Shown: positions 1 to 51,709 of the stretch, in pieces
Position numbering within the stretch: the stretch's first letter is position 1
Layout of the letters: each line of letters starts with the position of its first letter
Source: a phage
DNA: 54,988 nt
Direction: 5' to 3' (one strand)
Assembly (NCBI GenBank): GCA_021081985.1
Contig: GCA_021081985.1_3639.2
Notes under the pieces: model-generated
Told to the model about the DNA's origin: nothing
Seen by the model: the letters and a program-made list of their open reading frames with translations, nothing else
The model's database searches: none
Translations under genes and position numbers: made by a program

Positions 1-1686
1 ATTTAACAACCCTGTATCCGTCTTATCCTCATCCATTGGGTCTAAAACAGATCGCCTGTTACGAAGTGATAGCCACTTAACAATCTGTTTTGCCATATGC
101 ACATCAATTTTCTCCAGATTTGGACACAGATGCCCAAAATTATCTTTTAGTTGAGGAGATGTCGGTAACTGGCGTGCCTTACGCCGAAATTTCTTAAATA
201 TCTCTGAATAACCCCTTTCAGATGCATGGCGATGGTCAAACTTACGCTCTGAAATGTTGAATTTCTCATCTGAATCATTAAGGTAGTCAAGAATAAGAGA
301 TTTATACTCAGACTCTGCCAACTCTTCTATGTACTTCTTAACTAGTACATCAATTTCAGAATCTTCACGAGTCTTTTTAAATTGATCCTTAGTAACATCT
401 TTTACACGCCACAGTGTAGGTTTCCAACCAGCATCTTTGATCAAATATTTTTTAATATCATCTTGATTAGAGATTTTCATTGGAACCATTAAATCTGGCA
501 TTTTTCTGTTTCGAAGGTCTTCTTTAGCCTTCTCTAGAAGATCTGGCGGTAAAGGTTCGAGTGTGTTCTCTTTGGCTCGCTGGGAACGAATGAAATCACC
601 GTATAAAGCCGGATCTTCAATGCCATTCTGGATGCAATATCTCTCCCCTGCTGCACTTACATCCCCATTACTCTTAAAAGCTGTTTTTGGTGGAGCTTTA
701 AAATCCAGAGCTTCTCTGTTAACAGGATAACCAAGTTTATATTCCAACCAATTCCACCCATGATGAGATATATTACCCGCTGTGTCAAAAGGGTTGGCTG
801 GGAATTTTGGTTGTTGGGATTTCGTCATCTCTTTCTTTGGAAGAAGTGGTTCTACCTCTTCTTCAATTTCCCGCATCATCTTATCTATGCGATCTCTTAA
901 TTTTTCTGCCTCCTCCCGATTAAAGTATACGCCTTGTATTTCTTGCTCTATCATCAAATAGTCTGTGAGCATTCTCCTACGTAATGCATTTTTCCAATTA
1001 ATCTGGTGCATCCCGTGAGGTTTATCAGTGTACATAAACTGCTTGTCATCAGGCCATCGCGTACCATTTGACTCATCAATAAGAGCTTTCCACACAAGTT
1101 CGTTAATGATAACGTCTTCCCACACACGGTTTACATATTCCCACAATGGCTGATTACGCCAATCATCAATCTGCACTTTCTTGTTTGCTACACGATAACC
1201 CCATGCCAATAAGCCGTGTGGCCCAACCCTGTCACGTTTTCCTGTTACAGGGTTCAATACAGAATCTGGGCAGCCATTAGGCAATGGGCGATCTGGGTAA
1301 AGAACACGACTCATTGAAAGAGTGTCGTAAAGATTTACCTGTTTATTACCTATCGTCCCCATACATTTTGGGTCTTTGAACATGTCATATTCAATCCCAG
1401 AAAGTTTTTTCCACAGACGTAAATCATAGCCGAACAGGTTATGTATTGCTATCCCTCTTGGCTCGGTCTGCAACCAAGAGTAAAAATCATCATAAGAAAG
1501 GATACGTAAATTAACACCTTCTTTGCTGCGTGCAAAATTAACTGCACTCTGGTATTCCTTGTGAGCAGGATCGAGAAACAATACCCAGTTATTTACAGCA
1601 TATTCTTTAAAAAGTGTGCAGTGATATTTAGTTGCCTCTTCTAATAATCCGTCAGCTTCGTTATCTCCGACAAAAAGCCCTTTCAT
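1..1686 (-). CDS. DNA polymerase, family A (T7 gp5-like), N-terminal exonuclease and part of polymerase domain; 3' end of gene lies beyond window start
   Basis: Continuous minus-strand frame from ATG at 1686 (AGGAGG RBS just upstream) to the window edge. N-terminus MKGLFVGDNEADGLLEEATKYHC and HGLLAWGYRV resemble T7 DNA polymerase exonuclease motifs (recalled, not searched). Confidence 0.75.
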   Translation of the reverse strand, partial: MKGLFVGDNEADGLLEEATKYHCTLFKEYAVNNWVLFLDPAHKEYQSAVNFARSKEGVNLRILSYDDFYSWLQTEPRGIAIHNLFGYDLRLWKKLSGIEYDMFKDPKCMGTIGNKQVNLYDTLSMSRVLYPDRPLPNGCPDSVLNPVTGKRDRVGPHGLLAWGYRVANKKVQIDDWRNQPLWEYVNRVWEDVIINELVWKALIDESNGTRWPDDKQFMYTDKPHGMHQINWKNALRRRMLTDYLMIEQEIQGVYFNREEAEKLRDRIDKMMREIEEEVEPLLPKKEMTKSQQPKFPANPFDTAGNISHHGWNWLEYKLGYPVNREALDFKAPPKTAFKSNGDVSAAGERYCIQNGIEDPALYGDFIRSQRAKENTLEPLPPDLLEKAKEDLRNRKMPDLMVPMKISNQDDIKKYLIKDAGWKPTLWRVKDVTKDQFKKTREDSEIDVLVKKYIEELAESEYKSLILDYLNDSDEKFNISERKFDHRHASERGYSEIFKKFRRKARQLPTSPQLKDNFGHLCPNLEKIDVHMAKQIVKWLSLRNRRSVLDPMDEDKTDTGLLN

Positions 1687-1880
1687 ACTCCTCCTATTCA
1701 AGATGGGCTTGACTGTATCGTCGCCCATCTCTTAGTTGGTTATAGATTATGTGGAAAACTACCTATTTTTGATTTATGTTTCTTTGCCAAAGGGCTTCTC
1801 TTGGCGGGAATGTACCCCTCAAGCCCCTTGGCAACACGAATAGCTAACTCATCATATTTTACACGTATCCTCTTTTTCTC

Positions 1881-3881
1881 TCAAAATGGTGTGTCGTTGT
1901 CCAAATCTTCAGGTTGCTCAATAACAACAGCAGGTTCTTGTTGAGGAACAGAAACAGCAATTTTACCCACAGGTGTTTCAAGCTCTAAACTTTGAACCAT
2001 TGATTTAGGTCTTAGCATTACCTCCCCGTTGAGTTTAAACATATTGTCTTCCCACACCCATCCTGACGCATCAGAAAACTGACCATTATCATCCATAATC
2101 AGGGTATCCGCTATGCCTAATTTTTTGTGTGGACGGTTTTTCAAAACAACACTACGAATACGCCCACGAGATCGGTCAGGGAGTTCTTCAGGCTCGACAC
2201 CTAAGACAACCCACGATAACTGTTCGAGTGCTGCACTTCCCCTTAAAGATTCTTTTCTCACCGGATACCAGAAAGGTAACAAATTACCTTCTTTATCTTT
2301 CGGAATTTGTATATCAACACGCTTCATATGACTGATACTGAGGATAAACACGTCATATTTTTTGCAGAAGGCAGCCAATTCCGTCATGATGTTATCTAAA
2401 TCTCTTCGCTCGTTATCGGATTTTAATCCTGATATCACCATCGATAAGTGATCTAAGATAATCCATCTACACCCATCAAGGAAAACCATCTGTTTCAATT
2501 TTTGTAGTAATTGGTCAGTTGGTATTGAACCAAAGTGATCGAAAATTTTAACCTTATCTTCGGCAATCCATCGTTGGTGTATAGCTAAGTGCTGCTCATC
2601 GGTAAGGAATTGTTCTGGGTCTGCAACAAATGCTTTCGGGTCAATCTTTAGCTCCTCAGCATATAAGCTGTTTACAGACTCCTCCTCATCCTCCTCTAGA
2701 CGAATAATTGCAATTTTCTCGTTCTCTTTCCAACCGTCTAATCGGGGAATATCCATGTTACGGAGGTACTCGATAATTGCATACTCAATCTTTCTTGAGA
2801 AAGTTGATTTCCCAGCTCCAGATGGGCCTGTCAGTGTCCACAATTCTCCTGTTCGTGGGCCTCTTGTTAGTTCATACAAACGAGGAAAGCACGGCAACGG
2901 AACGCCATCTTTTTTCTTTTTACGGAGATTCTCAATAGATATTCTCTCCAACCCAATCAATTTATCAGGAACATATTTGTCCTGCGCTTTAGCAAACATA
3001 TTCCAGATATCCATCCATTTACCTTTTTTGTAAATATCTCGGATATCTTTAACACCATTTGGGTCATTGCGTTCATTTGGGTATCGTGCAACATAGATGT
3101 TGTCAGACAGCAAAAAACTAGCAACATCATCTGTGGCTTCCTTACCTTTCTTAATTCTGTGTTCTTTTTCCCTTGCTGTGGCTTCATCATTGTCTAAACC
3201 AAGGACTATCTTTTCATATTCCCTGATAAACTTTTCGTTGTGGGCAAATGTATCCACAGCATTGGCTGTACCACAGTTCAACCCGATAAAAGGTAATGTC
3301 GGGCAATTAGAAACCTCTTCCCCATCCTGAATTGCTTTGATGCCTTTTAAAGCATTGTTTGCCCACTCACGTACTGAACGTGACGTATTAGGATTACTAT
3401 GAAGAAATTTAATATACTCAAACCCAGCTTGCCAGCCAGCCGTTACATCGCCTTCCCCCTCAACAATAAAGATCTGTTTTTTACCAGATCCCATAGCAGC
3501 TTCATGTTGCCCAAAAAATTGAGAGGAAGCCTTCACTGTGCCAACAACAGAGAAATGCCCCTTTTTCTCTTTCGGGACGGTCCAGTCTCGTTTCTTGTAT
3601 CCTGTCAATTTCCCATATTTATCATAATATGGAAGATATGTTGCCACTACTGTAGTACCGTCTTTCAAATCTGTTGCAGATCTGATCTTGAAGTACTTAG
3701 CTGCATCTAAGCTAATATCCATTTGGGGGACAGCCAAGATCCTTGTACTATCCAAGACAGACTCTACAGTTTCTTCTTCTTTTTTCTGATAATTCACTTT
3801 ACCACCACTTTTTGTAGGCCGGAATGCTTTTGGGTTCTCACCTTCAAAGTATGCACCAGCCCCCCATTTTGTCATCTTCAT
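1881..3881 (-). CDS. Primase-helicase (T7 gp4-like, DnaB-family helicase domain)
   Basis: 666-aa ORF. Walker A LTGPSGAGKST, IILDHLSMV and LRGSAALEQLS motifs parallel T7 gp4 helicase motifs. N-terminal half is consistent with a primase domain. Confidence 0.75.
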   Translation of the reverse strand: MKMTKWGAGAYFEGENPKAFRPTKSGGKVNYQKKEEETVESVLDSTRILAVPQMDISLDAAKYFKIRSATDLKDGTTVVATYLPYYDKYGKLTGYKKRDWTVPKEKKGHFSVVGTVKASSQFFGQHEAAMGSGKKQIFIVEGEGDVTAGWQAGFEYIKFLHSNPNTSRSVREWANNALKGIKAIQDGEEVSNCPTLPFIGLNCGTANAVDTFAHNEKFIREYEKIVLGLDNDEATAREKEHRIKKGKEATDDVASFLLSDNIYVARYPNERNDPNGVKDIRDIYKKGKWMDIWNMFAKAQDKYVPDKLIGLERISIENLRKKKKDGVPLPCFPRLYELTRGPRTGELWTLTGPSGAGKSTFSRKIEYAIIEYLRNMDIPRLDGWKENEKIAIIRLEEDEEESVNSLYAEELKIDPKAFVADPEQFLTDEQHLAIHQRWIAEDKVKIFDHFGSIPTDQLLQKLKQMVFLDGCRWIILDHLSMVISGLKSDNERRDLDNIMTELAAFCKKYDVFILSISHMKRVDIQIPKDKEGNLLPFWYPVRKESLRGSAALEQLSWVVLGVEPEELPDRSRGRIRSVVLKNRPHKKLGIADTLIMDDNGQFSDASGWVWEDNMFKLNGEVMLRPKSMVQSLELETPVGKIAVSVPQQEPAVVIEQPEDLDNDTPF

Positions 3882-3890
3882 CTCTTCTCC

Positions 3891-4082
3891 TTAGAAGGGT
3901 TTGGTAACTACAGCCATATACCAGCCATTACACACAGATATGCCACCTGAAATACAGTAGCCTTTTCTAAACCAAGTGTTTAGTTTTAATTCTAATTCTG
4001 AAATACTAGTTCCTGTGAGAATCTTGACATTTTTATCCACCAACCCTCCTAAAATCATTATATAGGAATACAGCTTTGGCAA
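3891..4082 (-). CDS. Hypothetical small protein
   Basis: 63-aa ORF in the same-strand gene chain; no recognisable motif. Confidence 0.3.
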   Translation of the reverse strand: MPKLYSYIMILGGLVDKNVKILTGTSISELELKLNTWFRKGYCISGGISVCNGWYMAVVTKPF

Positions 4083-4773
4083 ATCCTCTTGGGGTTAACG
4101 ATCTTATAACCTTTGTCTTTTTTGATTTACCACCCAATTTTAGGTGCTGCTCAGAATACCCGCTTACCACGGGAACAGGTAATTTCTCAGGCATCCTAAA
4201 ACCATTTCCTGTCCACAAACAAGTCTTTTTAGGGTAGGCATCTCTGGGTTTTATGTATTCTGGAAAAAATGGATGAACATCATTCTCTGTTAAATATCCA
4301 CCGTACTCATAAGGATGAAATGAATGATCTGGTTTACGCCACAGAGAAGATAGAACACTAACTGGATTTTCTATCATGTAAGGGCAGCCGTATTCATCTG
4401 CCAACCTTGCTGCCACTTTTGCTGTATTTACAGCCTTTATCTGGAATAAAGGGTCTTTTGCAGCTTTTCTTGCGAAATGCGCTGCACCACTAACAGCCAT
4501 ATCTGTGCATGGTGGGAATGCGAATATAATACTTGGCTTACAAATCCCTACCTCTGCTGGGTTAAATTGGTCATCTATCCAAACATTAATGTATTCTATA
4601 TTTTTGTGTTTTATTCTGATACTTTCATAACCGCCGTGATCAGCGCCATCATAATTAAGGCATATTACTTTGTACCCATTTTTTGCCCATTCGTAACCCA
4701 TGATACCTGATCCGTCAAACATGCACAAAACTGTATCACTCAACACACCTCCTATACCAGAAAACAGGCCCAT
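4033..4773 (-). CDS. DNA (cytosine-5)-methyltransferase-like protein
   Basis: N-terminal MGLFSGIGG (motif I FxGxGG), FPPCTDMAVSG (PC motif IV) and MIENPVS (ENV-like motif VI) in canonical order. Confidence 0.55.
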   Translation of the reverse strand: MGLFSGIGGVLSDTVLCMFDGSGIMGYEWAKNGYKVICLNYDGADHGGYESIRIKHKNIEYINVWIDDQFNPAEVGICKPSIIFAFPPCTDMAVSGAAHFARKAAKDPLFQIKAVNTAKVAARLADEYGCPYMIENPVSVLSSLWRKPDHSFHPYEYGGYLTENDVHPFFPEYIKPRDAYPKKTCLWTGNGFRMPEKLPVPVVSGYSEQHLKLGGKSKKTKVIRSLTPRGFAKAVFLYNDFRRVGG

Positions 4774-4801
4774 AGTGTGGGCCTTTTAAGTTACGCTAAA
4801 A

Positions 4802-5023
4802 TCAGTGCAACACTGCATGAACGGGGCTTCCATCAGCACCGTAAGGAATGTCTTGTACCTGGGCCACCCTTTTCACTAAAGTATACACCAGCCAACCTTC
4901 AGCTTCATGTTGTCCTGCAATATCATAACCATCATCAAGAAGTTCAGCCAGTTTGTTCTCTACTTCTTCTCTTTTTGTTTTGCTAATTTTGAACTCAATG
5001 AGTTTAACAGTGTTTTTAACCAT
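4802..5023 (-). CDS. Hypothetical protein
   Basis: 73-aa ORF tiling the minus-strand chain. Confidence 0.3.
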   Translation of the reverse strand: MVKNTVKLIEFKISKTKREEVENKLAELLDDGYDIAGQHEAEGWLVYTLVKRVAQVQDIPYGADGSPVHAVLH

Positions 5024-5027
5024 AATT

Positions 5028-5312
5028 CTAGAAACCTTCTTCTCTATTGTAACACCCGTTTATCTCTAGATCTCTCAGGTATTCTCTTAAATGATGGTAT
5101 AGCACATCATCTGGAATGTCAAGATAGATTTGCTTACCGTTTTTGAATACAGCGCAATATTCCAGTTCCTGAAAGCCGTTGTAATCCCAGTCGCTTTCTT
5201 TACTGAAGAAGTCAGGTTTTTGAACAGAAAATAGAGCTTCGACAACCACCAATCCGCAATCCTCATGGTCGTATTCGAACTCAATGTCTACCATAGGGGA
5301 TTTGCTATTCAT
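5028..5312 (-). CDS. Hypothetical protein
   Basis: 94-aa ORF; stop adjoins the next gene start. Confidence 0.35.
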   Translation of the reverse strand: MNSKSPMVDIEFEYDHEDCGLVVVEALFSVQKPDFFSKESDWDYNGFQELEYCAVFKNGKQIYLDIPDDVLYHHLREYLRDLEINGCYNREEGF

Positions 5313-5778
5313 ACTCCCCCAACTCTTGTTTTAACTCAATATTTTCTTTTAACAGGGCATTCACAAAAGCTAATATGTGAACAAGGGAACTCTGACAACC
5401 ATTAGCATATAGTTCAGCTTCTACACGCTTTTTCAATTCTGCGCCATAGCCGTCTAAGCTGTCGAGATGCTCTTTAATTTTATCATAAGCATCTCGTTTT
5501 CCTCTTAGCTCATTAATAATGTACAGAACATTATCTGGGCTTGCGGTGGCAATGTAACTGGCATCGTAGTCATTTTGCCAGTGAGATAAATTCCCTGTTC
5601 CCTCATGTCTCTTTGCCGGACCCATTTTAGGATCTGTGATGAAAACAGTTTCTATTTTATTATCATTTTGGAATGCTACCATTGCATGTCCATGGCTATC
5701 TATCCACCAGTGCCCTCTGGTGGCTTTCTTTGCCAGTTTCTCAATATCTCCGATTAAGATATCAGCTTTTGTCTGCAT
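5305..5778 (-). CDS. Hypothetical protein
   Basis: 157-aa ORF with protein-like composition; no confident motif. Confidence 0.4.
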   Translation of the reverse strand: MQTKADILIGDIEKLAKKATRGHWWIDSHGHAMVAFQNDNKIETVFITDPKMGPAKRHEGTGNLSHWQNDYDASYIATASPDNVLYIINELRGKRDAYDKIKEHLDSLDGYGAELKKRVEAELYANGCQSSLVHILAFVNALLKENIELKQELGEYE

Positions 5779-6088
5779 TGATATCCTCCTTCTTCAAGAC
5801 TAAACTTGCTCTTGAGATCTCAGAAGAAACATACTCTATGTGACTAATCACATATGTCGTCACTCCGCTTCCATCGCCAAAAATATTATCAAGATCTACG
5901 ATAACAAGATCACCATCTTCCGGTTTTTCTACATCATCGGATAAGATAATCACAGCTTCTGCAACCTCCCCAGATTGGTTGAGACGCAGTGTAATATCAT
6001 GACCATTACCCCTATACTCAGTAAAATCAAAAACTTTTTCTGCTTTTTGGTGTGGTGGGAAAAACCACTTAAAGAGCTTCTTCAACAT
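5762..6088 (-). CDS. Hypothetical protein
   Basis: 108-aa ORF, tightly packed with neighbours. Confidence 0.35.
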   Translation of the reverse strand: MLKKLFKWFFPPHQKAEKVFDFTEYRGNGHDITLRLNQSGEVAEAVIILSDDVEKPEDGDLVIVDLDNIFGDGSGVTTYVISHIEYVSSEISRASLVLKKEDINADKS

Positions 6089-6251
6089 TCATTCGCTCCT
6101 TAATTTCATTTAGGATGTCTTCGTATCGCTGCCACGACTCTTCGGCAGACAACTTTGCTTCAAGAAAGTTGTCTCGTGCAACATCTCGTAATTTCAACAA
6201 TTTTTCAGTTGAAACTTGACTCAAATCTGTAAAGTCTTCGACTTTAAACAT
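6069..6251 (-). CDS. Hypothetical small protein (start trimmed to internal Met MFKVEDF)
   Basis: The upstream part of the 132-aa ORF overlaps the 6244..6615 gene in another frame and looks non-coding; the C-terminal 60 aa look genuine. Confidence 0.3.
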   Translation of the reverse strand: MFKVEDFTDLSQVSTEKLLKLRDVARDNFLEAKLSAEESWQRYEDILNEIKERMNVEEAL

Positions 6252-6615
6252 CTTTATTTTCCTTGAAGTAATTAAACAGATCAGTGATTTTCTCTTCCAC
6301 ACCTTTATAGAAGAGATACTTTGTGTCTGCCATACGAGAATTATATGCGTCCTGACCTTTTTCCTGCAACCAGAAGAACGCTTGTGCAAACTCACCCTCT
6401 TTGAGGGTCGGGTCATATTCAAAACCAATTCTTTTACAGGCTTGCAAAGACTGATGGATAAGAACATCCAAGGAGTTTATTACATGTGCAGCATTCTCAA
6501 CATCGCACGCCATACGATGCTCACCTTTTGCAGAGAGTTCTTTAGAAATCTCCATAAGTCGACGGAAAGTTTCTTCTGCCACTGTTCTTGTACCTTTACT
6601 TGTAGATATTTTCAT
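6244..6615 (-). CDS. Hypothetical protein
   Basis: 123-aa ORF with balanced composition. Confidence 0.4.
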   Translation of the reverse strand: MKISTSKGTRTVAEETFRRLMEISKELSAKGEHRMACDVENAAHVINSLDVLIHQSLQACKRIGFEYDPTLKEGEFAQAFFWLQEKGQDAYNSRMADTKYLFYKGVEEKITDLFNYFKENKDV

Positions 6616-6617
6616 AA

Positions 6618-7043
6618 TCAGTCCTCGAATTTAATCCAACGCTTCTGGGATTTGATCTGACCTTTCTCACCTTTACCTTTCAAACGCTGGACAGCCACCT
6701 GTTGTACAATTTTACTCCGTAAAGCAAAGCTGATAGCGTCAGGAGCTAAAACACGAGCTTTACAAACACAATTATTATGAAGTGATACAGCATCTTCAAA
6801 AGACAGGTTTAAAGGGTGTTTTTCAGAACCCCAAACACGATAATATCCAAAACGCCCATCCTTAACATCTGGGTAGTTAGGCAGTAAACGAGGTGCATAT
6901 CCTAATGCAGCCATCATTTCATCAACCGATGCCATCTGGATATGTGTGGTGTCTTTACCATGATGAGATTCTTTATTATCCCACCAACCCTTTAATTCAG
7001 CTTTAAATTTCTTTAAAAGTTCACTTTTTGAATATGAGGTCAT
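6618..7043 (-). CDS. Hypothetical protein
   Basis: 141-aa ORF abutting the helicase gene. Confidence 0.4.
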   Translation of the reverse strand: MTSYSKSELLKKFKAELKGWWDNKESHHGKDTTHIQMASVDEMMAALGYAPRLLPNYPDVKDGRFGYYRVWGSEKHPLNLSFEDAVSLHNNCVCKARVLAPDAISFALRSKIVQQVAVQRLKGKGEKGQIKSQKRWIKFED

Positions 7044-7053
7044 CAGCTATCTC

Positions 7054-8358
7054 CTACTTACCAGGGAAAGTCTCTTCATAAAACTTAACAAGACGTTGAT
7101 CAACGATAATATCTTTATCCCTGATCCTACGTAATAACCTTAATCCTTTTGCACTTGTTGCTCTGCTAAAAGCCACGTATGCCATGCCTGGTGCAAAAGT
7201 CCCATTGCCAAAGTCAACATTAACTTCCGGTAATGTTAATCCTTGTGCTTTGTGTATTGTAACAGCCCACCCAAGACGAATCGGCAAAGCCCTGTACTCA
7301 CCAATGATAATCTTCTCAATTTCTTCAGTTATTGTACCATCTGGGTTTTTCACCTTTATGGGGTTATACTCAACATTTTCCCACACATAAGGTTCTACGT
7401 CAACAATATCCCCATTTTCAAGACGGACTCTAACACTGTATCTACGTAGTTCAACAATCTCTCCACGGGAACCATTCACATAACTTGGTTCCTCCAGTCC
7501 TTTAGGGTCATTGACAGTAATCATCACCTGCGCCCCCTCTTTCAGGTACAACTCTTCCGGCACAGGTGTCTGGTTAAATTGCCCTGTCTTTTTTGCCTTG
7601 TAAACTGTTGGGATTCCAGGTATTGCATCAAAACGTTTTTTGTTTATTTTGTCTGCTGCTGCGTTTGTTGAGGTTATTGTTATAGCATCCAATGGTTTTC
7701 CCATGTTGTAGCAATAAGTATTCATAAACTCAACAATCTCTGGAATACGCTCTCCCTTGCGAAGGCAATTAAGAAGTGTTGAAAAATGAACACTACTTTG
7801 CCTGTAGATTTTATCAAGAAATACAGGATATGGGTTCAATTCTTTCCATGTTTTAGAAAAGCAACAAAGTTCTGTGTCGTGGAACTGGTAGTATATCTCT
7901 TTTTCTTCACTTTTTAAAACAGGTGGATTCTGTAAGAAATCCCCGAACATACACACCTGCAAACCACCGAAAGGCTCTTTGGGTTTTTTACGTGCCAGAC
8001 GACATTTCATGTCCATTTCCCAGAGTTTGTCTGCCCTGAACATACTTATCTCTTCAATAATAAGAATCTTCAGTGCTTTACTTTTAAGCAACTTCTTAGC
8101 CTTTGCCTTTATTTCCTCTGCATCTTTTTTAGTGGACACGCCTAATGAAAGTCCGAAAGCTCTGTGTGCTGTCATACCATCCACATTAATGGCAGCAGCC
8201 CCTGTAGGGGCCACTGTCAAAACTGAGCCTGCGTATAAGGATTGGATAGTTTTTATAGTATGACTCTTTCCAGCACCTGCATAACCACTGATAAACACAT
8301 TCTCACCTGACATTATAGCGCCGAGAGCATCTTCAACGCCAACCCCGTATTGAGACAT
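7054..8358 (-). CDS. dda: Dda-like SF1B DNA helicase (RecD/Pif1 family)
   Basis: 434 aa; Walker A GYAGAGKSH near the N-terminus, Walker-B-like LIIEEISM, C-terminal GWAVTIHKAQGLT and AYVAFSRAT motifs typical of Dda/RecD helicases. Confidence 0.7.
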   Translation of the reverse strand: MSQYGVGVEDALGAIMSGENVFISGYAGAGKSHTIKTIQSLYAGSVLTVAPTGAAAINVDGMTAHRAFGLSLGVSTKKDAEEIKAKAKKLLKSKALKILIIEEISMFRADKLWEMDMKCRLARKKPKEPFGGLQVCMFGDFLQNPPVLKSEEKEIYYQFHDTELCCFSKTWKELNPYPVFLDKIYRQSSVHFSTLLNCLRKGERIPEIVEFMNTYCYNMGKPLDAITITSTNAAADKINKKRFDAIPGIPTVYKAKKTGQFNQTPVPEELYLKEGAQVMITVNDPKGLEEPSYVNGSRGEIVELRRYSVRVRLENGDIVDVEPYVWENVEYNPIKVKNPDGTITEEIEKIIIGEYRALPIRLGWAVTIHKAQGLTLPEVNVDFGNGTFAPGMAYVAFSRATSAKGLRLLRRIRDKDIIVDQRLVKFYEETFPGK

Positions 8359-9371
8359 CAGTCCTCCTTAGATTCTTGTAGATAAATCTCTTCAAGAATT
8401 TTACCCTGTACCCCAATGACAATAATATCTGGTGCACCTGCTGGTTTTGGTGTTCCTGTCAGAACTTCATAACGACAGCAACGGCATTTTTTCTGGTTAT
8501 AGTCATAAGGGACACTGACAATATCTGCCGGATCCACAGATACTTCTATAAGTACCCTTGAAGTCTTCTCAAAGGTAGCGGCATAGTCAATAGATGCAAC
8601 ATGCAAACCTTGGCTACATGTTCTATTGGGATTATCCTCAACCATATTACGTGGCATGGAAATAACTTGCCCTTTATAATTAGGAACTTTACCTGTATGG
8701 CAATCTCGTGGACCATCTACAGTTATCTTAATTTTCTTGTATGCCTTAATATTTCCGTTTTCAAGGATCTCAAGATCATTATGTTTTACAAAATCATAAA
8801 GCATTTTAACAGAAGCATACGACGGGTTGTGTAGCAACTTCTGCATGAATTTGACATATCGTTCGTCAAAGCAATCATTCTCAATATCTTTAATGATTCG
8901 TTTAGCAATACTGCTTTCCTGTTTTTGACCGTGCCAATACAAAACACTATCTATCAATACTAAATTATCACCAAAATCAATGGTCTTTTTCTTTTCTGCT
9001 TCTTTCTCTTCTAAAATACGTTGTACAGCAGCATCTATTCCTCCTGTCCAAAGGATAACACCAACTTCTTTGAAGATGGGGCTGCTACTATTTAGAGTAT
9101 ATTGTTCACCATTTAACAAAGTGATATGGATATTATCTTGGGTAACAAGGACAATTGGTTGTGCAAGAGTATGCACGGGCTTCATAATATCTACAGGATC
9201 TTCCTTAGCCTTTTTGGTTGTCGGCATTCCTTTTTTGGGTGCAACTGTCCAGCGTTTAAGAACATTTAGACCACGATCAACAACCACCATATTATTTTTC
9301 TTAGCGTATTCACGAGCTTCACGACGTGACATGAATAAAGGATTACTCACCTTTTTCTCCTTTGTTGTCAA
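8358..9371 (-). CDS. rIIB: rIIB-like protein
   Basis: 337-aa ORF immediately downstream of and overlapping the rIIA-like gene, the conserved rIIA-rIIB order. Assignment is by synteny and size, not a verified alignment. Confidence 0.45.
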   Translation of the reverse strand: MTTKEKKVSNPLFMSRREAREYAKKNNMVVVDRGLNVLKRWTVAPKKGMPTTKKAKEDPVDIMKPVHTLAQPIVLVTQDNIHITLLNGEQYTLNSSSPIFKEVGVILWTGGIDAAVQRILEEKEAEKKKTIDFGDNLVLIDSVLYWHGQKQESSIAKRIIKDIENDCFDERYVKFMQKLLHNPSYASVKMLYDFVKHNDLEILENGNIKAYKKIKITVDGPRDCHTGKVPNYKGQVISMPRNMVEDNPNRTCSQGLHVASIDYAATFEKTSRVLIEVSVDPADIVSVPYDYNQKKCRCCRYEVLTGTPKPAGAPDIIVIGVQGKILEEIYLQESKED

Positions 9372-11343
9372 TAAATTTACGATACTCTAGCATCTCTGGA
9401 GTATTGAAATGCCTAATATTAATGTATTTTAACAATGGGTAGCGATCTTTCTTAATTTGTAGCAGCTTTTTACCAATTCTCTTCTTGGCCTCTATCATCC
9501 ATAATGCTTTCTCACGGCTATCTTCGTAGCCAGGAACTGAACAATAACTGGGCATGTTTACCTTCATCTCCCATTTTGGGAAACTGGCTACCATCACGCC
9601 GAAGTAGCTAAGTTCTTTAACAATGTTATGATACTCATGGTCTTTCCCTACTTCTTGGTATAAATGATATTCAAGAAGGTTAGTTTTTGCAAGAGCATGA
9701 ATATCCTCCTCAGTTATAACCCGTGCCTCATCTGGCAGCCAACTTGATCTGTTTAAAGGCACAATATATAACTTACCAACCACACCGAGATTCTTGAGAA
9801 ATGTTGGTGGTTGCTTTCTCCAAGATGTTCTAAGATTGGAAACGTATCCTAACGGGCATAATCCTTTCACCTGCCCACCCCAGTATACCATAGCCGCCTC
9901 AATATCTTCAAATTGAGCACGGGAAATACGGGTTACATCTACGGAGCCATCTTGGTTGATTATCCAAACTTTATGACCTGGTTCGTAATAACCATAGCCA
10001 CCATACTTTTTATCTGCTTTTTGCACTGGTCGTTTTTCAAGTTCAGATAACTTGAAAATCATCCCTTCAAAGAATTTATCACTGTATAAGGACAGAGCGT
10101 AATCAGCATCGGTTATAAATGATCTCTTACCAAACTTCTCTGCGAGCCAGTTACATTTAGAGCGCACATACTTGTGATCATCATTGTAAACCAGTGGATG
10201 ACCATTCATCAACTCTGCGTATGAATATCTCTCATCCTTACCACGGCGTGAGCCTTCGCCACCATATGTTTCACAGTAATCTATGTAAGAACCATCAGTA
10301 TAATTCTTGAACTTATTTGCAATAAAAGCAGCACCATATTTTGTAGCGAAATAACCACCAACATATTTCATATGTTCAAGAACTGCTTTTAAAGTTGGCA
10401 GATCGCTTAATTCTTTTGTAATTTCTTCTCCACGAAGTCGGATAGCTTTCGTCACAAAACTTTCAAGTTTATCACGGAATCCTCCGTCATTCTTTCCTTC
10501 TACTGTCCATTCTCGGCCTGGGTCTACATTACAATCCCCAATAGGGATAGATACCGTCATCATGGGCAGTTCTTTACGAGTCGAGAGATAATCAGAGAGA
10601 TATGGTTGTTGCCCCATGATGACAACACTATCAGCGTTTCTCGACATGCTACTATACATCTCAAGAACCCAGCCAGTCTCCTCATCCTCATAACGATACT
10701 GAACAGGATAAGTACGATCTTCAATCTGCGTTTTAACAAAAGGATCATTAATGATATATGGAAATTTAGCATAGCGAAGGCATTTTACAATAGCCAGACG
10801 ATAAGCTCCTGTTTCCCAAGTGTTTACGTTAAATTTAACCTCTACACCATTCTCCTCTGTTGTTTCACAAGAAAATAAAGGCACAACCTCTGGTATTCCG
10901 CTGTTTTTGTGAACAGAGTATGTTGTTTTCACTCCATCTTTAACAGAAACAACTGTGAACATATCTGTTACTGCAAGAGGTGCTTTTGACCCAATACCTT
11001 TCGCGCCAATCAGATCATTACTGTTTCTTTTTGTGGACTCACCAATCATCATGAATGTACGTGTTACCATCTCATGATCCATACCTAACCCTGTATCCTT
11101 AACAGAATACCAAGGTTCCAAGTCTGTTGGTGAGTGGATGATGATGGGTTTATCAGAACACCCTGCCTCTGTATGAGCATCTACAGCGTTGAAGAGAGGC
11201 TCTCGTACTGCTGCTAAAGTTTTATCTTTATAAATTCCATCGATAAGAATACTGAAAGTCTCAGGATTCATTGCAATTGATGCTTGGTATCTTTCTACGT
11301 TCCCAGTTACCTGGACTTTGTTGTCAGATCTTTGAATAATCAT
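9343..11343 (-). CDS. rIIA: rIIA-like protein with GHKL/HATPase_c ATP-binding domain
   Basis: 666 aa; N-box REPLFNAVDA, G1 box DTGLGMD and G2 box GAKGIGSKA of the GHKL ATPase fold, as in phage rIIA; followed by the rIIB-like gene. Confidence 0.6.
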   Translation of the reverse strand: MIIQRSDNKVQVTGNVERYQASIAMNPETFSILIDGIYKDKTLAAVREPLFNAVDAHTEAGCSDKPIIIHSPTDLEPWYSVKDTGLGMDHEMVTRTFMMIGESTKRNSNDLIGAKGIGSKAPLAVTDMFTVVSVKDGVKTTYSVHKNSGIPEVVPLFSCETTEENGVEVKFNVNTWETGAYRLAIVKCLRYAKFPYIINDPFVKTQIEDRTYPVQYRYEDEETGWVLEMYSSMSRNADSVVIMGQQPYLSDYLSTRKELPMMTVSIPIGDCNVDPGREWTVEGKNDGGFRDKLESFVTKAIRLRGEEITKELSDLPTLKAVLEHMKYVGGYFATKYGAAFIANKFKNYTDGSYIDYCETYGGEGSRRGKDERYSYAELMNGHPLVYNDDHKYVRSKCNWLAEKFGKRSFITDADYALSLYSDKFFEGMIFKLSELEKRPVQKADKKYGGYGYYEPGHKVWIINQDGSVDVTRISRAQFEDIEAAMVYWGGQVKGLCPLGYVSNLRTSWRKQPPTFLKNLGVVGKLYIVPLNRSSWLPDEARVITEEDIHALAKTNLLEYHLYQEVGKDHEYHNIVKELSYFGVMVASFPKWEMKVNMPSYCSVPGYEDSREKALWMIEAKKRIGKKLLQIKKDRYPLLKYINIRHFNTPEMLEYRKFIDNKGEKGE

Positions 11344-11363
11344 TCAATACCTCTATGAACTAA

Positions 11364-11882
11364 TTATGCGTCAGGATGCTTGTAAAAAATATGATTCCCA
11401 ACCTTCACTGTTTTCACCATAACTTTTGCCCAAGATGGCCTAACAGTAGTTGCATGATAGTACGTTGCTGATTTTGTGTAGTCAAGAGCTTTGTATAAAC
11501 TTTTGTGGTCTTTATGCAATCTTATCAATATTTTAGCATAAAATTTAGCTCTTAACCATCTATCCTTTTCATAGACTTTAAAGGATTGCCCACCGAATGT
11601 CCAAGAGAATTGCCCTCGCTGATAAACTATTTTCTTGATAGTATGCGGGAAATTCTTGTCATCTTTTCTATTCAATGTGACAAAAGCGACACCCATCATT
11701 CCATAATCACCTTCTCCTCTTCCCTCTTTATACAAGTTACAGGCAAGAATATTAAGCTCTGTATCATTCTTCTTGCAAATGTGAAGAACTTGGGGCTTCT
11801 TTGCACTTTCTTTGGCTAGAACAGGGGTAATAGACAGAGAAAGTGCACAGCAAACTGCAAATAATAAAGATCTTATTTTCAA
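11364..11882 (-). CDS. Cell wall hydrolase, SleB/CwlJ (Hydrolase_2) family, with N-terminal signal peptide; proposed TTG start
   Basis: LYKEGRGEG, GVAFVTLNR and RGQFSW motifs match the SleB-family signature. With a TTG start the N-terminus is MKIRSLLFAVCCALSLSITPVLA, preceded by GGAG; the ORF-track start at 11987 would run through the upstream intergenic hairpin. Confidence 0.6.
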   Translation of the reverse strand: MKIRSLLFAVCCALSLSITPVLAKESAKKPQVLHICKKNDTELNILACNLYKEGRGEGDYGMMGVAFVTLNRKDDKNFPHTIKKIVYQRGQFSWTFGGQSFKVYEKDRWLRAKFYAKILIRLHKDHKSLYKALDYTKSATYYHATTVRPSWAKVMVKTVKVGNHIFYKHPDA

Positions 11883-11923
11883 AACTAACTCCAGACAAAT
11901 AAGCCCCATAAAGGGGCTTTCTG

Positions 11924-12268
11924 TTAGCGATGGAAACGAATATCTCCAGACACTGTGTTTACACTTCCATGGATTGTATTTGCGCAAACATCACCAGACA
12001 CCGAAGATACATTGCCTAAGATATCTTTCTCAACATTAATATCCCCAGATGTTGAGATCACACCATTAGAGACATTTCCATAAACATTGATACCACCTGA
12101 TGTTGTACGTACCTCTTTAGCATCACCTTTGATAATAACTGTAATGTTTTTATCGTTTGTGGTATGAACTAAATCACCATTGATATAGACATTATCACCC
12201 TTAGTGGTGATAGAGATACTACCATTGGTATAGTTTCCAGAAATTGTATTACCATTAATCGTAATCAT
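11924..12268 (-). CDS. Beta-solenoid repeat protein (bactofilin-like), start trimmed to MITINGNT
   Basis: Repeating G-x-V/I-S-G-D-I/V units (GNVSNGVISTSGDINV, GNVSSVSGDV, GSVNTVSGDI); the N-terminal 36 aa of the ORF-track call look like out-of-frame readthrough. Confidence 0.4.
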   Translation of the reverse strand: MITINGNTISGNYTNGSISITTKGDNVYINGDLVHTTNDKNITVIIKGDAKEVRTTSGGINVYGNVSNGVISTSGDINVEKDILGNVSSVSGDVCANTIHGSVNTVSGDIRFHR

Positions 12269-12443
12269 TGTTTTGTTTCTCTTTAACAATAGGTGCTTTC
12301 TGAACAGAGTATACAAATGTTTTATTGTCTTCAATAAACTTTCTGCCCTGTTCTTCATCTTCAAAAATAATTGTGTCACACTTTGCCTTTAACATACCAC
12401 GTTCTACAGTTGTGTGTGTCGTAGAAACAATTAAAGCCATCAA
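12255..12443 (-). CDS. Hypothetical small protein
   Basis: 62-aa ORF between the RNA ligase and repeat-protein genes. Confidence 0.3.
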   Translation of the reverse strand: MMALIVSTTHTTVERGMLKAKCDTIIFEDEEQGRKFIEDNKTFVYSVQKAPIVKEKQNNDYD

Positions 12444-13474
12444 AACACCTCGTTAAGTTGTTCCATGTACCAACTACGGGCTTTATTTGTTGTAAATTTT
12501 GCCACGTCTTTCATAGAAAGAGAATTGGCTTCTAACACATCTGCTTCTTCTTTGTTGATATCGCGGTTAACCCATGCGATAAATGCCCCCAGAGATGCGA
12601 TGTCCAATCCAATTTCTTGCAACCCTTGTCGTAAACGGTTCTCAGTAACTGCATACTCCACAAAATCTTTGATAGATTGCAGTTTCACAGGATCAACGGC
12701 AGCCAGTGTTTTCACTTTAGAGACAGAATGTTTTTGCCCTTTCACTTTAAACCAAAGTGCAGAAACATGTGCCAAGTGGCGATCTTTAGGTGTCCATACC
12801 ACACCCTCACCAACACCAGATACGCCAAAATATTTACCTACTGGGCACTCTTTTTCTACACCTTCGGTAATCTGTGCAATTTCTGATTGCACTGTCTCTG
12901 GCATGTTAAAAGGAATATCCAGTTCCCACTTACCAAAAGTTAAAATATTATAAATACGTTGTTCTGGTAATCCAATGCCAAGAATATCGTCTAAGGCTAA
13001 CCATTTTCGATGGTCATTCTCTTTTCCTACTGCCACACGGAAAATAGTAAAGAAAGGCATGATTTCAGATACCGCAACACCTTTCTGGATACCTTTTCCT
13101 GAAAATTCCCCAGCAATTTCTACTGGGAACTTAAATTCAATACCCCGATCTTCGCAGATCTGCTTGACTTGCTCCAACAGGGGTTTATGGTCTTTTTCAA
13201 CCATAAAGGCCATAAACCCATAATTATCTTCTTCCAAAGACAAAACGCGTTCTTTGGACTGGTACACAACCTCATCTTCAGAATTAAAGACTACACGGCA
13301 ATTAGTCCCGTGAATTTTAACTGTTCCTACATAAGAAATGAGATATTGATCTGGAGAGGCAACCTTACGCTTTATATTGCCATTCTCATCACGACCATCA
13401 TAAGTCAGACGGTCATTAACCGCTCGGATAACGTTGCGAAATTGACTAGTGCTTGGGTACTTAGTTGCTTGCAT
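12440..13474 (-). CDS. RNA ligase, Rnl2-like (ATP-dependent nucleotidyltransferase)
   Basis: 344 aa; motif I lysine in VKIHGTN (the KxHGxN adenylylation motif of T4 Rnl2); size matches the Rnl2 family. Confidence 0.65.
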   Translation of the reverse strand: MQATKYPSTSQFRNVIRAVNDRLTYDGRDENGNIKRKVASPDQYLISYVGTVKIHGTNCRVVFNSEDEVVYQSKERVLSLEEDNYGFMAFMVEKDHKPLLEQVKQICEDRGIEFKFPVEIAGEFSGKGIQKGVAVSEIMPFFTIFRVAVGKENDHRKWLALDDILGIGLPEQRIYNILTFGKWELDIPFNMPETVQSEIAQITEGVEKECPVGKYFGVSGVGEGVVWTPKDRHLAHVSALWFKVKGQKHSVSKVKTLAAVDPVKLQSIKDFVEYAVTENRLRQGLQEIGLDIASLGAFIAWVNRDINKEEADVLEANSLSMKDVAKFTTNKARSWYMEQLNEVF

Positions 13475-13847: not shown

Positions 13848-14029
13848 TGTCCCTCCACATCGTCAATATCTTCCATACCATCTTGCCACAGAACTTCATA
13901 GCAAGCGTCATAAATTGCGCTCATAGCATCTTTACGATCTAACACATCTACAATTTTTGGATCAATACTTTTAATTGCTTCCGCAATTTTATCGTAAGCA
14001 ATATCAGGATGCATGTTCTTTTTTGCCAT
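13844..14029 (-). CDS. Hypothetical small protein
   Basis: 61-aa acidic ORF, translationally coupled to neighbours. Confidence 0.3.
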   Translation of the reverse strand: MAKKNMHPDIAYDKIAEAIKSIDPKIVDVLDRKDAMSAIYDACYEVLWQDGMEDIDDVEGQ

Positions 14030-14525
14030 CTGGGATCTCCTCTTCGTTTAAGACATAAATTGTCACATCACAATCATGGAGAACAGATTCTATCATAGTT
14101 TCTATGATTTTCCAATCCCCACCTGCTAGTCCAGCACCTATTTTTGGCAGCCCGATCTTATAATCAGACATAAAGCCATCTGTGTGCCTTTGCAAACAAT
14201 CTCGCATTGCTGCTAAAGAATCGTAAAGGGCGTTATAATTCAGATCCCTCACACCCATTCTACGCCCATTATAGCCGTATTGTGTGTACAGATTAAAACC
14301 CGCCAGCTTACCTTCGTTCATGACAGCCCAAGTATAACTGCCCAGTTTTGTTCGATCACCTTTCTCTGTCTTTAAATCTTCAGCATACATTTTTGGGAAT
14401 GTATTCTTTATTTCTTTAGCAATTCCAGACCCCATGGTGCAAAATGTATTACAACCATGAGCTATCACATTAACATCCCTTTTAAGTGCTGCCTCTATTA
14501 AGCAACCAACTTTATACTTAAGCAT
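14004..14525 (-). CDS. Macro-domain protein (ADP-ribose binding/processing), start trimmed to MLKYKV
   Basis: VIAHGCNTFCTMGSGIAKEIK glycine-rich ADP-ribose-binding signature and C-terminal GLPKIGAGLAGGDW match macro-domain proteins. Confidence 0.55.
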   Translation of the reverse strand: MLKYKVGCLIEAALKRDVNVIAHGCNTFCTMGSGIAKEIKNTFPKMYAEDLKTEKGDRTKLGSYTWAVMNEGKLAGFNLYTQYGYNGRRMGVRDLNYNALYDSLAAMRDCLQRHTDGFMSDYKIGLPKIGAGLAGGDWKIIETMIESVLHDCDVTIYVLNEEEIPDGKKEHAS

Positions 14526-22131: not shown

Positions 22132-22239
22132 AATTTAACCACACAGGGAGGCTAACGCACGTAGTCTCCCATATGTCCCCATTTCAGGGACATGGGTATG
22201 TCCCCGTTTTGGGGACACAATACTAACTGATCAAATTAA

Positions 22240-50183: not shown

Positions 50184-50191
50184 AAACCCCC

Positions 50192-50980: not shown

Positions 50981-50989
50981 AGGATCTCC

Positions 50990-51694: not shown

Positions 51695-51709
51695 TTTCCC
51701 TCTTCTGTG

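Follow-up and report, generated by a model that had tools for sequence, protein, structure and literature searches.

The first 11,343 nucleotides of the window (the whole 54,988-nucleotide stretch of phage DNA that was analyzed) very probably come from a Vequintavirinae (rV5-like) myovirus, where they form a conserved early/middle "replication plus rII" block inherited as a single module. T7-like and T4-like genes do stand side by side in this block, yet the combination was previously described, in a known group of E. coli phages, and is passed on as one unit. The two flavors would reflect the old shared ancestry of widespread phage gene families and not a recent recombination mosaic. This lineage reading is based on protein and DNA identities and a comparison of synteny. 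The features of the block and of the flanking and distant regions are as follows.

1-1686, minus strand: family A DNA polymerase, T7 gp5-like, N-terminal 562 aa (PHROG 17 "DNA polymerase", E 5.7e-47)
1856-1884, minus strand: weak promoter-like site, TTGAGA-17-TAAAAT, from a consensus scan, in the 194 bp that separate primase-helicase from polymerase
1881-3881, minus strand: T7 gp4-like bifunctional primase-helicase (PHROG 239, E 5.5e-157; Pfam DnaB_C)
3891-4040, minus strand: conserved 49-aa ORF (PHROG 17689, E 7e-30)
4033-4773, minus strand: short C5-cytosine methyltransferase-like protein (PHROG 757 "DNA methyltransferase", E 8.7e-88)
4802-7043, minus strand: seven small conserved ORFs (PHROGs 10384, 4240, 5585, 10936, 5932, 2686), at 4802-5023, 5028-5312, 5305-5778, 5762-6088, the 3' part of 6069-6467, 6244-6615 and 6618-7043
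7054-8358, minus strand: Pif1-family SF1B DNA helicase (Pfam PIF1, 90.9 bits; cutoff 25.9)
8358-9350, minus strand: rIIB homolog (PHROG 609, E 4e-67)
9343-11343, minus strand: rIIA homolog with an N-terminal GHKL (HATPase_c_3) ATPase domain (PHROG 612, E 1.6e-125; Pfam 35.6 bits)
11364-11987, minus strand: SleB-type cell wall hydrolase (Pfam Hydrolase_2, 72.6 bits)
12440-13474, minus strand: RNA ligase, distant member of the Rnl2 type (PF09414, 38.9 bits; PHROG 548, E 7.5e-73)
52287-52760, minus strand: nrdG (Fer4_12, Radical_SAM)
52757-54988, minus strand: nrdD, cut by the contig end (consecutive exon ORFs match Pfam NRDD)

The original prediction, that a T7-like polymerase and gp4-like primase-helicase lie next to rIIA/rIIB and a helicase, is confirmed with support far above chance, and all five genes are on the minus strand. 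It was also correct in placing the phage outside the T7 group (Autographiviridae) and the T4 group (Straboviridae), the phage being kin to Av-05 in the Vequintavirinae. Its interpretation is partly supported: the taxonomic placement stands, and the mosaic framing and the implied novelty do not. By marker identities, synteny and GC content, all modules fall within one well-described lineage.

Escherichia phage Av-05 matches the block at 97.2% DNA identity over 100% of the block. Mydovirus KB57 and Vequintavirus RudolfGeigy have the same gene order (rIIA-rIIB-helicase-small ORFs-primase/helicase-polymerase), and all five markers give one common ranking of falling identity (Av-05 > KB57 > RudolfGeigy > T7 or T4). 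These three observations together point to an old, co-inherited module. The identities to the window proteins, in the order polymerase / primase-helicase / Pif1 / rIIB / rIIA, are listed below.

Av-05: 98 / 99 / 99.5 / 98 / 98%
KB57: 86 / 76 / 67 / 50 / 62%
RudolfGeigy: 55 / 54 / 52 / 36 / 39%
T7 or T4: 23-35%

A true recent mosaic, in which T7-like replication and T4-like rII/helicase cassettes recombined in this phage or its immediate ancestor, would explain why the nearest experimentally studied homologs come from different model phages (T7 gp4/gp5 and T4 rIIA/rIIB). It is nevertheless very improbable. The identity to T7 and T4 proteins is only 23-35%, against 36-86%, varying by gene and genus, for other Vequintavirinae genera. 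Every marker ranks the relatives alike, gene order is kept in three genera, and the GC content of the block is flat (0.39-0.41), with no break. Homologs of the polymerase and the primase-helicase also occur in Felixounavirus and ICP1 myoviruses. Nor does rIIA serve as a T4 marker, since a tblastn search found homologs in 2823 phage records from many lineages, including Felixounavirus, N4-like podoviruses, and Streptomyces and Caulobacter phages. The rIIAB genes are present in many large myoviruses and N4-like phages (Maffei et al. 2021, PMC8594841).

The block matches only seven phage records at the nucleotide level, and about 4.9 kb of the window (50096-54988, carrying PhoH, a GH19 lysin and nrdG/nrdD) has no counterpart in the Av-05 record. 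Both facts would suit a new lineage of genus rank, so far undescribed, that lies apart from every known group. However, six of the seven records are 95.6-97.2% identical over 100% of the block, with vB_EcoM_TH18 (TH18), 18-1-2, 19-1-2 and 24-2-1 at 95.6%, and the same four phages cover the rest of the window at 93% identity and 98% coverage. Av-05 (Vequintavirinae, species Avunavirus Av05) is already the exemplar of the ICTV genus Avunavirus, and a new lineage is extremely unlikely. Against Av-05, the whole window forms two collinear blocks of 49,497 of 54,988 bases at 94.8% identity, that is, about 95% over 90% of its length. The window phage would belong to the same species as Av-05, or borderline so, judging from these identities over the contig; the Av-05 record departs from the window's order at a junction near 22.2 kb and has no equivalent of 50096-54988. 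A prophage or bacterial chromosomal island is scarcely credible, even though a protein 100% identical to P0001, on a contig of 54,988 bp, is labeled "AAA family ATPase [Escherichia coli]" by NCBI, because that contig is exactly as long as the window, all examined window blocks match virulent Vequintavirinae phages, bacterial flanks and tRNAs were not found in the window, and no integrase was seen in the ORFs scanned, which include part of the small ones. The most plausible reading is a phage contig that was included in a bacterial assembly.

Within the co-inherited block, the polymerase gene runs off the contig end, which leaves motifs A-C outside the window; the part inside comprises a long insert in addition to the 3'-5' exonuclease domain. 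The 174-aa exonuclease domain is 27% identical to that of T7 gp5 (E 1e-10), with a readable Exo I motif (VGDNEADG; VSDIEAN in T7). T7 gp5 chains were the sole matches in a PDB search, at a weak E of 5e-4, and a Pfam profile search with this ORF gave no match. The polymerase is 98.4% identical to that of Av-05, 86% to KB57, 55% to RudolfGeigy and 49% to ICP1. In Av-05, group I introns with HNH ORFs split the part of the gene that lies beyond the window. The total number of promoter-like sites found in the region by the consensus scan is not above the shuffled expectation.

The primase-helicase consists of a TOPRIM/RNA-polymerase domain (about aa 40-300) and an SF4 helicase domain (about aa 330-630). 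It is 26% identical to T7 gp4 over 529 aa (E 3e-36), and a PDB search recovered T7 gp4 at E 9e-25. Columns invariant with T7 are E157, E159, D161, D207, D209, D237, K318, E343, D424, H465, R522 and F566. With the AF2 model (pLDDT 77.6), Foldseek placed T7 gp4 chains at the top, with E down to 8e-31 and target-normalized TM up to 0.76. The protein ends in an acidic tail (...EDLDNDTPF), and 18 of 22 clade members have such a tail with a terminal F or Y. In T7 gp4, the zinc-binding domain is required for template-directed priming. By alignment and clade comparison, the Cys4 zinc finger is absent from the N-terminus here and across the whole clade. The window protein therefore resembles the 56-kDa form of gp4, and its priming activity is putative. 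It is mildly interesting that a gp4-like protein without this finger has lost none of the T7 primase catalytic residues and retains the acidic Phe tail. The window and Av-05 carry an intein-free allele of 666 aa; in TH18 and many metagenomic relatives, a 308-aa intein at LRG/S extends the protein to 974-975 aa.

Between the primase-helicase and the Pif1-family helicase lie small genes. The methyltransferase-like ORF has readable FDGSG, PPC and ENP motifs and had no match in Pfam, NCBIfam or PDB searches; the RudolfGeigy gene in the equivalent position is annotated as a Dcm-like methyltransferase. With two Cys only, the 49-aa ORF is no zinc ribbon. ORF 6618-7043 is a DUF7390 protein (Pfam 92.7 bits). 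Pfam does not back the "DNA ligase" names that PHROG gives to the small ORFs of 73 and 108 aa.

The helicase matched bacterial Pif1 structures over its full length in a PDB search (e.g. 8bns, 6s3e and 5ftb; E 3.5e-68 to 6e-56), and T4 Dda was not found among its PDB matches at E<=0.01. Its PHROG (325, E 9e-103) is named "Dda-like helicase", but pairwise comparison with T4 Dda gave 23% identity over 112 aa (E 9e-4), a likeness at the level of Walker A and motif VI only, and orthology with Dda was rejected. Because the Pif1 matches are strong and that to T4 Dda is weak, the predicted term "Dda-like" is valid at the superfamily and functional level only; the family is Pif1.

The rIIB homolog is 35% identical to T4 rIIB over 205 aa (E 6e-39), and the rIIA homolog is 28% identical to T4 rIIA over 292 aa (E 4e-21). 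The Av-05 annotation and the local sequence indicate a probable rIIB start at a GTG at 9350, preceded by AAAGGAG. The helicase start overlaps the rIIB stop (TGATG), with AAGGAGG upstream, and the 1-nt overlap recurs in the KB57 and RudolfGeigy coordinates. Through such stop/start codon overlaps, rIIA, rIIB and the helicase probably form one translation unit. The SleB-type cell wall hydrolase is the upstream neighbor of rIIA in both the window and RudolfGeigy.

Two further predictions concerned genes beyond the block, and both hold. The Rnl2-like ligase is a distant member of its family: it scored 39 bits (E 6e-10) against TIGR02307, far under the cutoff of 197, and its sole PDB match was T4 Rnl2 (E 1.5e-3). 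The nrdDG genes do carry group I introns, in nrdD at 54037-54277, 54548-54827 and possibly 53253-53534; one RF00028 score (80.9 bits) passes the Rfam threshold, while the other two (41.8 and 15.4 bits) fall below it and mark candidates.

Homology to T7, T4 and Pif1 suggests how the parts might work. The block would encode a T7-type replisome core of two proteins: a hexameric gp4-like SF4 helicase, with a predicted catalytically intact TOPRIM primase domain, would drive a family A polymerase that has a proofreading exonuclease. Like T7 gp4, this helicase probably uses its acidic, Phe-ended C-terminal tail to dock on the polymerase. In T4, Dda has an accessory role, which the 5'-3' Pif1-family SF1B helicase may fill here. 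The small putative C5-methyltransferase-like protein and the rIIA (GHKL ATPase)/rIIB pair would be further working parts. The T4 rIIA/rIIB pair protects against Rex-type abortive infection.

Compared with T4, the window has the same adjacent rIIA-then-rIIB pair. For rIIA the homology covers the N-terminal GHKL domain and for rIIB the C-terminal domain, whereas the C-terminal half of the window rIIA and the N-terminal third of rIIB have no detectable T4 similarity. In T4, dda and rIIA are about 7 kb apart, unlike in the window, where the helicase gene is directly coupled to rIIB. Both helicases are SF1B, and a similar accessory replication role is presumed from gene position.

T7 gp4 shares its two-domain architecture and fold with the window primase-helicase, which keeps all the primase acidic residues, Walker A/B, H465, the R522 arginine finger and the acidic tail with its final Phe, and adds an insert of about 40 aa in TOPRIM and, ahead of the tail, some 60 extra aa. 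The polymerase has an exonuclease domain homologous to that of T7 gp5 and exceeds gp5 in length by about 200 aa. In both phages the two genes are neighbors, but the proteins are only 26-27% identical, T7 is a 40-kb podovirus and the window virus a roughly 134-kb myovirus, and neither a thioredoxin-binding domain nor a gp2.5-like SSB was identified here.

Vibrio phage ICP1 (Mohonavirus) has an adjacent primase-helicase and PolA (gp57/gp58), each 49% identical to the window protein. Its primase-helicase likewise has no zinc finger, and its C-terminus reads ...DGDEPF; unlike in the window, rIIA, rIIB and Pif1 do not adjoin this pair.

The rV5-like phages (Vequintavirus rV5/RudolfGeigy, Mydovirus KB57 and the Seunavirus PVP-SE1 group) share the order cell wall hydrolase-rIIA-rIIB-SF1B helicase-small ORFs/methyltransferase-primase/helicase-PolA. 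The products described in rV5 (Kropinski et al. 2013, PMC3606486) include PolA (gp228), a PIF1 helicase (gp237), NrdAB/NrdDG, and gp230, which has a gp4d/DnaB domain and is homologous to the primase/helicases of podoviruses. The window differs from these phages in the small ORFs and methyltransferases that lie between helicase and primase-helicase, and in KB57 one additional ORF separates the primase-helicase from the polymerase. In Av-05, gene content, gene order and strand all match the window.

Judged by gene order and by identity ranking, the replication and rII genes at 1-11343 form one fixed inherited unit of the Vequintavirinae and are not a mosaic in the evolutionary sense. All of the window from 1 to ~18,900 is coded on the minus strand, with negative GC skew throughout and a flat GC content of 0.39-0.41. 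The genes of this unit, and those outside it that bear on the argument, are as follows.

Gene layout of the block and of further genes in the window
1-1686, minus: DNA polymerase, first 562 codons; the gene continues past the contig end
1881-3881, minus: primase-helicase of 666 aa (PHROG 239; Pfam DnaB_C and AAA_25)
3891-4040, minus: 49-aa ORF
4033-4773, minus: 246-aa protein with the C5-methyltransferase motifs FDGSG, PPC and ENP in its sequence
4802-7043, minus: seven small ORFs
7054-8358, minus: helicase of 434 aa (Pfam PIF1)
8358-9350, minus: rIIB (PHROG 609)
9343-11343, minus: rIIA (PHROG 612 over its full length); 11343 is exactly its start codon
11364-11987: Hydrolase_2 (SleB-type cell-wall hydrolase), adjoining rIIA
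12440-13474: Rnl2-type RNA ligase (PF09414)
15330-16538, minus: MoxR-like ATPase
52287-52760, minus: nrdG
52757-54988, minus: nrdD, split

The order of the replication and rII genes is identical in the window and in three compared members of the subfamily, Av-05, KB57 and RudolfGeigy. In Mydovirus KB57 the series runs rIIA, rIIB, helicase, then nine small ORFs, the primase/helicase, a single small ORF and the DNA polymerase. In Vequintavirus RudolfGeigy a MoxR ATPase and a cell wall hydrolase precede rIIA and rIIB, after which come the helicase, methyltransferases, the primase/helicase and the polymerase; this agrees with the window down to the upstream neighbours Hydrolase_2 and MoxR-like ATPase. 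For polymerase, primase-helicase, Pif1-family helicase, rIIB and rIIA, in that order, identity is 98, 99, 99.5, 98 and 98% to Av-05, 86, 76, 67, 50 and 62% to KB57, and 55, 54, 52, 36 and 39% to RudolfGeigy. Identity to Vibrio phage ICP1 is 49 and 49% (polymerase and primase-helicase only). The model phages are far below: 27 and 26% to T7 for the polymerase and primase-helicase, and 23% (Dda), 35% (rIIB) and 28% (rIIA) to T4. All markers give one relative ranking, and the block genes therefore diverged together.

The original prediction had read the same genes as a mosaic of T7-like replisome and T4-like functions, but all modules fall within one well-described lineage by both ranking and synteny, the outcome that the prediction itself had named as refuting it. 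Its placement of the phage outside the T7 and T4 groups holds insofar as the phage belongs to neither; it is nevertheless a member of a well-known subfamily. The pairing of a T7-like replisome with rII in a myovirus is not a signal of recombination between model-phage lineages: families of this kind occur across many groups of phages and, in the Vequintavirinae, are inherited as a fixed block. A tblastn search with rIIA matched 2823 phage records, among them Felixounavirus, N4-like podoviruses, jumbo Vibrio phages and phages of Streptomyces and Caulobacter, so "T4-associated" is too narrow a description of rII. The BASEL paper likewise places rII beyond the T4 group (PMC8594841). Felixounavirus, PAK_P1-like and ICP1 myoviruses likewise encode homologues of the polymerase and primase-helicase. 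In the rV5 genome, Kropinski et al. (2013) identified PolA as gp228, with its closest homologues in FV3, CR3 and ICP1; gp230 has GP4d_helicase and DnaB domains and is homologous to podovirus primase/helicases, gp237 has PIF1 and RecD domains, and NrdAB, NrdDG and a T4-like Srd are also encoded (PMC3606486). The gene mixture is therefore an already published trait of the rV5-like group. The block is textbook material for the subfamily, and the contig, an Avunavirus (rV5-like) phage in an E. coli assembly, has little discovery value. The use of the check lies in correction, including that of two labels: the helicase is of the Pif1 family and not Dda, and the "AAA family ATPase" is a gp4-type primase-helicase.

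When 1-11343 was searched by megablast against 50,697 phage records, six of these covered 100% of the interval, among them Av-05 at 97.2% identity and vB_EcoM_TH18, 18-1-2, 19-1-2 and 24-2-1 at 95.6%. Av-05 is the exemplar of Avunavirus within the Vequintavirinae (rV5-like phages), and its announcement places it among the PVP-SE1/rV5-like phages (PMC4463512). The same announcement gives Av-05 as 97% identical to RB69; this was rejected for 1-11343, where no T4-like record matched at the nucleotide level. Against the full Av-05 record, the window has 94.8% weighted identity over 90% of its 54,988 bp, which is clearly above the ICTV nucleotide threshold for a genus (70%) and borderline for a species (95%). 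Two blocks are collinear, window 1-22194 with Av-05 80633-102827 and window 22166-50095 with Av-05 13595-41739. Only 50096-54988 (PhoH, GH19 endolysin, nrdG, nrdD) lacks a counterpart in Av-05 (NC_025830), and it is covered by the 18-1-2/TH18 group. At 22166-22194 the window joins Av-05 102827 directly to 13595; in Av-05, tail fibre genes directly follow DprA. Misassembly of Av-05 is a likely cause of this non-collinearity, since that record, 13 kb shorter than TH18, was built de novo from reads of 36 bases.

Several database labels also deserve attention. The 133,882 bp of TH18 are the exact sum of the two 18-1-2 contigs (79,447 + 54,435), and TH18 looks like a concatenation of them. NCBI files the protein identical to the window primase-helicase (P0001, on a contig of 54,988 bp), and several close relatives, under Escherichia coli; the window is therefore a complete phage contig within a bacterial assembly. 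A prophage reading prompted by this source label was rejected, as every block examined matches virulent Vequintavirinae phages and the scanned ORFs include no integrase. The label suggests that contigs of a virulent phage entered the assemblies of bacterial isolates, either as contamination or from a carrier state. In the "Campylobacter phage" records MG065645 (A145), MG065658 (C7) and MG065659 (C5), the polymerase and rIIA genes are of rV5-like or phi92-like type (C5 rIIA, 38.9% identity over its full length; C7 polymerase, 55.5%), and their host labels are doubtful.

Among the smaller genes of the block, the ORFs at 4802-5023 (73 aa) and 5762-6088 (108 aa) are called "DNA ligase" by PHROG (10384, 10936) and by RefSeq in Av-05. 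Both are far too short, neither matches a Pfam family, and the name has probably been carried over in error from one annotation to the next. Searches of PDB sequences returned no match for the methyltransferase-like ORF or for rIIA. Within 1-12500, neither predicted promoters (43, versus 33.9±6.6 in shuffled sequence) nor terminators (10, versus 8.2±2.8) exceed expectation, and a tRNA scan of the whole window found none.

The description of nrdDG as carrying group I introns holds. The split nrdD has at least four exon ORFs, which match the consecutive NRDD profile parts 155-263, 263-415 and 440-562. One intron, at 54037-54277, scores 80.9 bits with RF00028 (gathering threshold 50) and is flanked by the ORFs matching 155-263 and 263-415. 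Two candidates are below the Rfam threshold, one at 54548-54827 (41.8 bits) and a weak one at 53253-53534 (15.4 bits). No obvious homing endonuclease ORF of at least 100 aa was found in any of the three. The Rnl2-like ligase is only partly borne out. It matches PF09414 (38.9 bits, threshold 27) and distantly resembles T4 Rnl2 (PDB match, E 1.5e-3), but TIGR02307, at 39 bits, is below its cutoff of 197. These scores make it a remote superfamily member and not an equivalog. It is one of four scattered genes that look like RNA repair functions: the ligase itself, a macro-domain protein (PHROG "phosphatase"; 14004-14612), an RlaP "RNA repair pathway" nucleotidyltransferase (42558-43619) and a CCA-adding tRNA nucleotidyltransferase with an HD domain (45449-46705). 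Such genes may counter host tRNA-cleaving defences.

Two further observations concern genes outside the block. A 478-aa ORF at 20277-21713 on the plus strand combines DUF2201_N (a putative metallopeptidase domain) with a VWA-like domain, and its Av-05 counterpart is named "HNH endonuclease" in RefSeq. In view of these domains, that label looks wrong. Proteins with DUF2201_N and VWA-like domains are the usual partners of MoxR-type AAA+ ATPases, and the MoxR-type ATPase of the window lies ~4 kb away. A second cell-wall hydrolase, unrelated to the SleB-type one, is found at 50990-51694 next to PhoH; it is a GH19 chitinase-like lysin with PG_binding_1.

The presence of rIIA and rIIB was correctly recognized. 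The rIIA protein has an N-terminal GHKL ATPase domain (HATPase_c_3, 35.6 bits, threshold 25) and, across its first 292 aa, shares 28% identity with T4 rIIA (E 4e-21). Its gene adjoins that of rIIB (PHROG 609, E 4e-67), whose last 205 aa are 35% identical to T4 rIIB (E 6e-39). The two proteins would presumably counter abortive-infection systems, as in T4, where the phenotype that defines rII is protection from Rex-type exclusion.

The helicase at 7054-8358 had been called Dda-like, and PHROG 325 bears the name "Dda-like helicase" (E 9e-103). It scores 90.9 bits with Pfam PIF1 (gathering score 25.9) and matches bacterial Pif1 structures in the PDB over its full length at E 3.5e-68 to 6e-56, the best being 8bns (E 3.5e-68, residues 17-427). 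No Dda structure is among its PDB matches at E<=0.01, and BLASTP against T4 Dda aligns only 112 aa at 23% identity (E 9e-4) and a C-terminal stretch of 50 aa (E 0.02). Sequence comparison thus assigns the product to the Pif1 family of SF1B helicases; "Dda-like" is acceptable as a functional analogy only. As a 5'-3' SF1B enzyme, it could plausibly fill the accessory role of T4 Dda, for example in clearing protein blocks and processing forks.

The three genes are closely packed. In the TGATG at 8356-8360, the rIIB stop and the ATG of the Pif1-family helicase share one base, with AAGGAGG upstream, and the same 1-nt overlap is present in the coordinates of KB57 and RudolfGeigy. The rIIA stop and the probable GTG start of rIIB overlap by 8 nt (9343-9350). 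With these overlaps, of which the rIIB/helicase one is common to KB57 and RudolfGeigy, the genes for rIIA, rIIB and the helicase probably form one translational unit. More tentatively, the 1-nt overlap kept in three genera may point to a functional connection of the rII proteins with replication.

The description of the polymerase N-terminus as T7-like is fair. The product of 1-1686 belongs to PHROG 17, "DNA polymerase" (E 5.7e-47). Its 3'-5' exonuclease domain is 27% identical to residues 1-141 of T7 gp5 (E 1e-10), with the Exo I DxE aligned, and T7 gp5 chains are its sole PDB sequence matches, at a weak E of 5e-4. A Pfam search of the part in the window found no match because the catalytic half falls outside the window. 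The positions of motifs A, B and C are beyond the contig end, and the next 117 aa in Av-05 match the T7 motif A region weakly (E 6e-4). POLAc has been reported for the rV5 orthologue (PMC3606486). Just past the position that corresponds to window position 1, at 4830-7646 of Av-05 (L001), the 3' part of the polymerase is broken into three additional segments, and three ORFs for HNH endonucleases lie between and behind these. Group I intron (RF00028) matches fall at L001 6966-7169 (47.5 bits), 6329-6592 (41.1 bits) and 5792-6096 (24.5 bits). The RudolfGeigy polymerase is annotated as two joined pieces.

The gp4-like character of the primase-helicase is well supported. The protein belongs to PHROG 239 (E 5.5e-157), carries DnaB_C (44.7 bits, cutoff 27) and matches T7 gp4 structures at E 9e-25, with 26% identity across 529 aa. 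When the window protein is aligned with T7 gp4 and with the homologues from KB57, RudolfGeigy and ICP1, the T7 primase residues K122, K137, E157, E159, D161, D207, D209 and D237 are invariant. The same is true of the SF4 (DnaB-like) helicase motifs, namely Walker A K318, E343, Walker B D424, H465 and the arginine finger R522. An AlphaFold2 model built from 22 homologues (mean pLDDT 77.6) is confident for a primase domain at ~40-300 (TOPRIM pLDDT ~90) and a helicase domain at ~330-630, and disordered at 1-35 and 637-666. Its best Foldseek matches are the T7 gp4 chains 5ikn, 1q57 and 6n9w (E 8e-31 to 1e-25, target-normalised TM 0.53-0.76), followed by Twinkle.

In both the window and Av-05 the primase-helicase allele lacks an intein (666 aa). 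In TH18 and in dozens of metagenomic relatives, which are 98-99% identical and 974-975 aa long, a 308-aa intein sits at exactly LRG|S, a site that corresponds to window 2237/2238 between codons 548 and 549. The intein begins with Cys and ends ...VTGN, and the next residue is Ser; P0107, which is less closely related, bears intein and LAGLIDADG Pfam domains. The megablast matches H3-H6 are in two pieces because of the intein.

The block would encode a T7-type replisome core, made up of a family A polymerase capable of proofreading and of a hexameric SF4 helicase that carries a TOPRIM primase. In T7, the polymerase-docking element is an acidic C-terminal tail whose last residue is aromatic. Such a tail is kept in the window protein (...EDLDNDTPF, compared with ...WSNDTDF in T7), and its final Phe (F566 in T7) is invariant in the five-sequence alignment. 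This conservation suggests that the primase-helicase may dock on the polymerase as in T7. A gp2.5-like SSB was sought through ORFs with an acidic, aromatic-ending tail; apart from the primase-helicase, a single unrelated ORF of 100 aa fitted.

One element of T7 gp4 is missing. The Cys4 zinc-binding domain (C17, C20, C36 and C39 in T7) is absent from the window protein, which has no Cys in its first 100 aa and a gap in the alignment where T7 gp4 has its zinc finger. No CxxC occurs within the first 110 aa of any of 22 clade members, drawn from Vequintavirinae genera, ICP1 and metagenomic relatives. Residues 1-35 of the window protein are predicted to be disordered, and a short disordered N-terminus may stand in place of the finger throughout the Vequintavirinae and ICP1 clade. 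The protein that RefSeq names only "AAA family ATPase" is therefore a gp4-type primase-helicase without a zinc finger. The 49-aa ORF directly upstream was rejected as a zinc finger acting in trans, having only two Cys and no CxxC. A literature search for gp4-like phage primase-helicases lacking the finger returned T7, Twinkle and plant papers only, and none on rV5-like phages.

The zinc finger of T7 gp4 is needed for template recognition, template-directed primer synthesis and primer hand-off, and the natural 56-kDa form without it cannot prime. The finger is missing throughout the clade, yet the primase catalytic residues are invariant. A tentative and rather unlikely explanation is therefore that the clade primes its lagging strand by zinc-finger-independent template recognition or with a partner in trans, and so has a new variant of the T7-type primosome. 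The clade differs in this respect from metazoan Twinkle: in Twinkle the finger and the catalytic residues are both gone, whereas in the Vequintavirinae and ICP1 the finger alone is gone.
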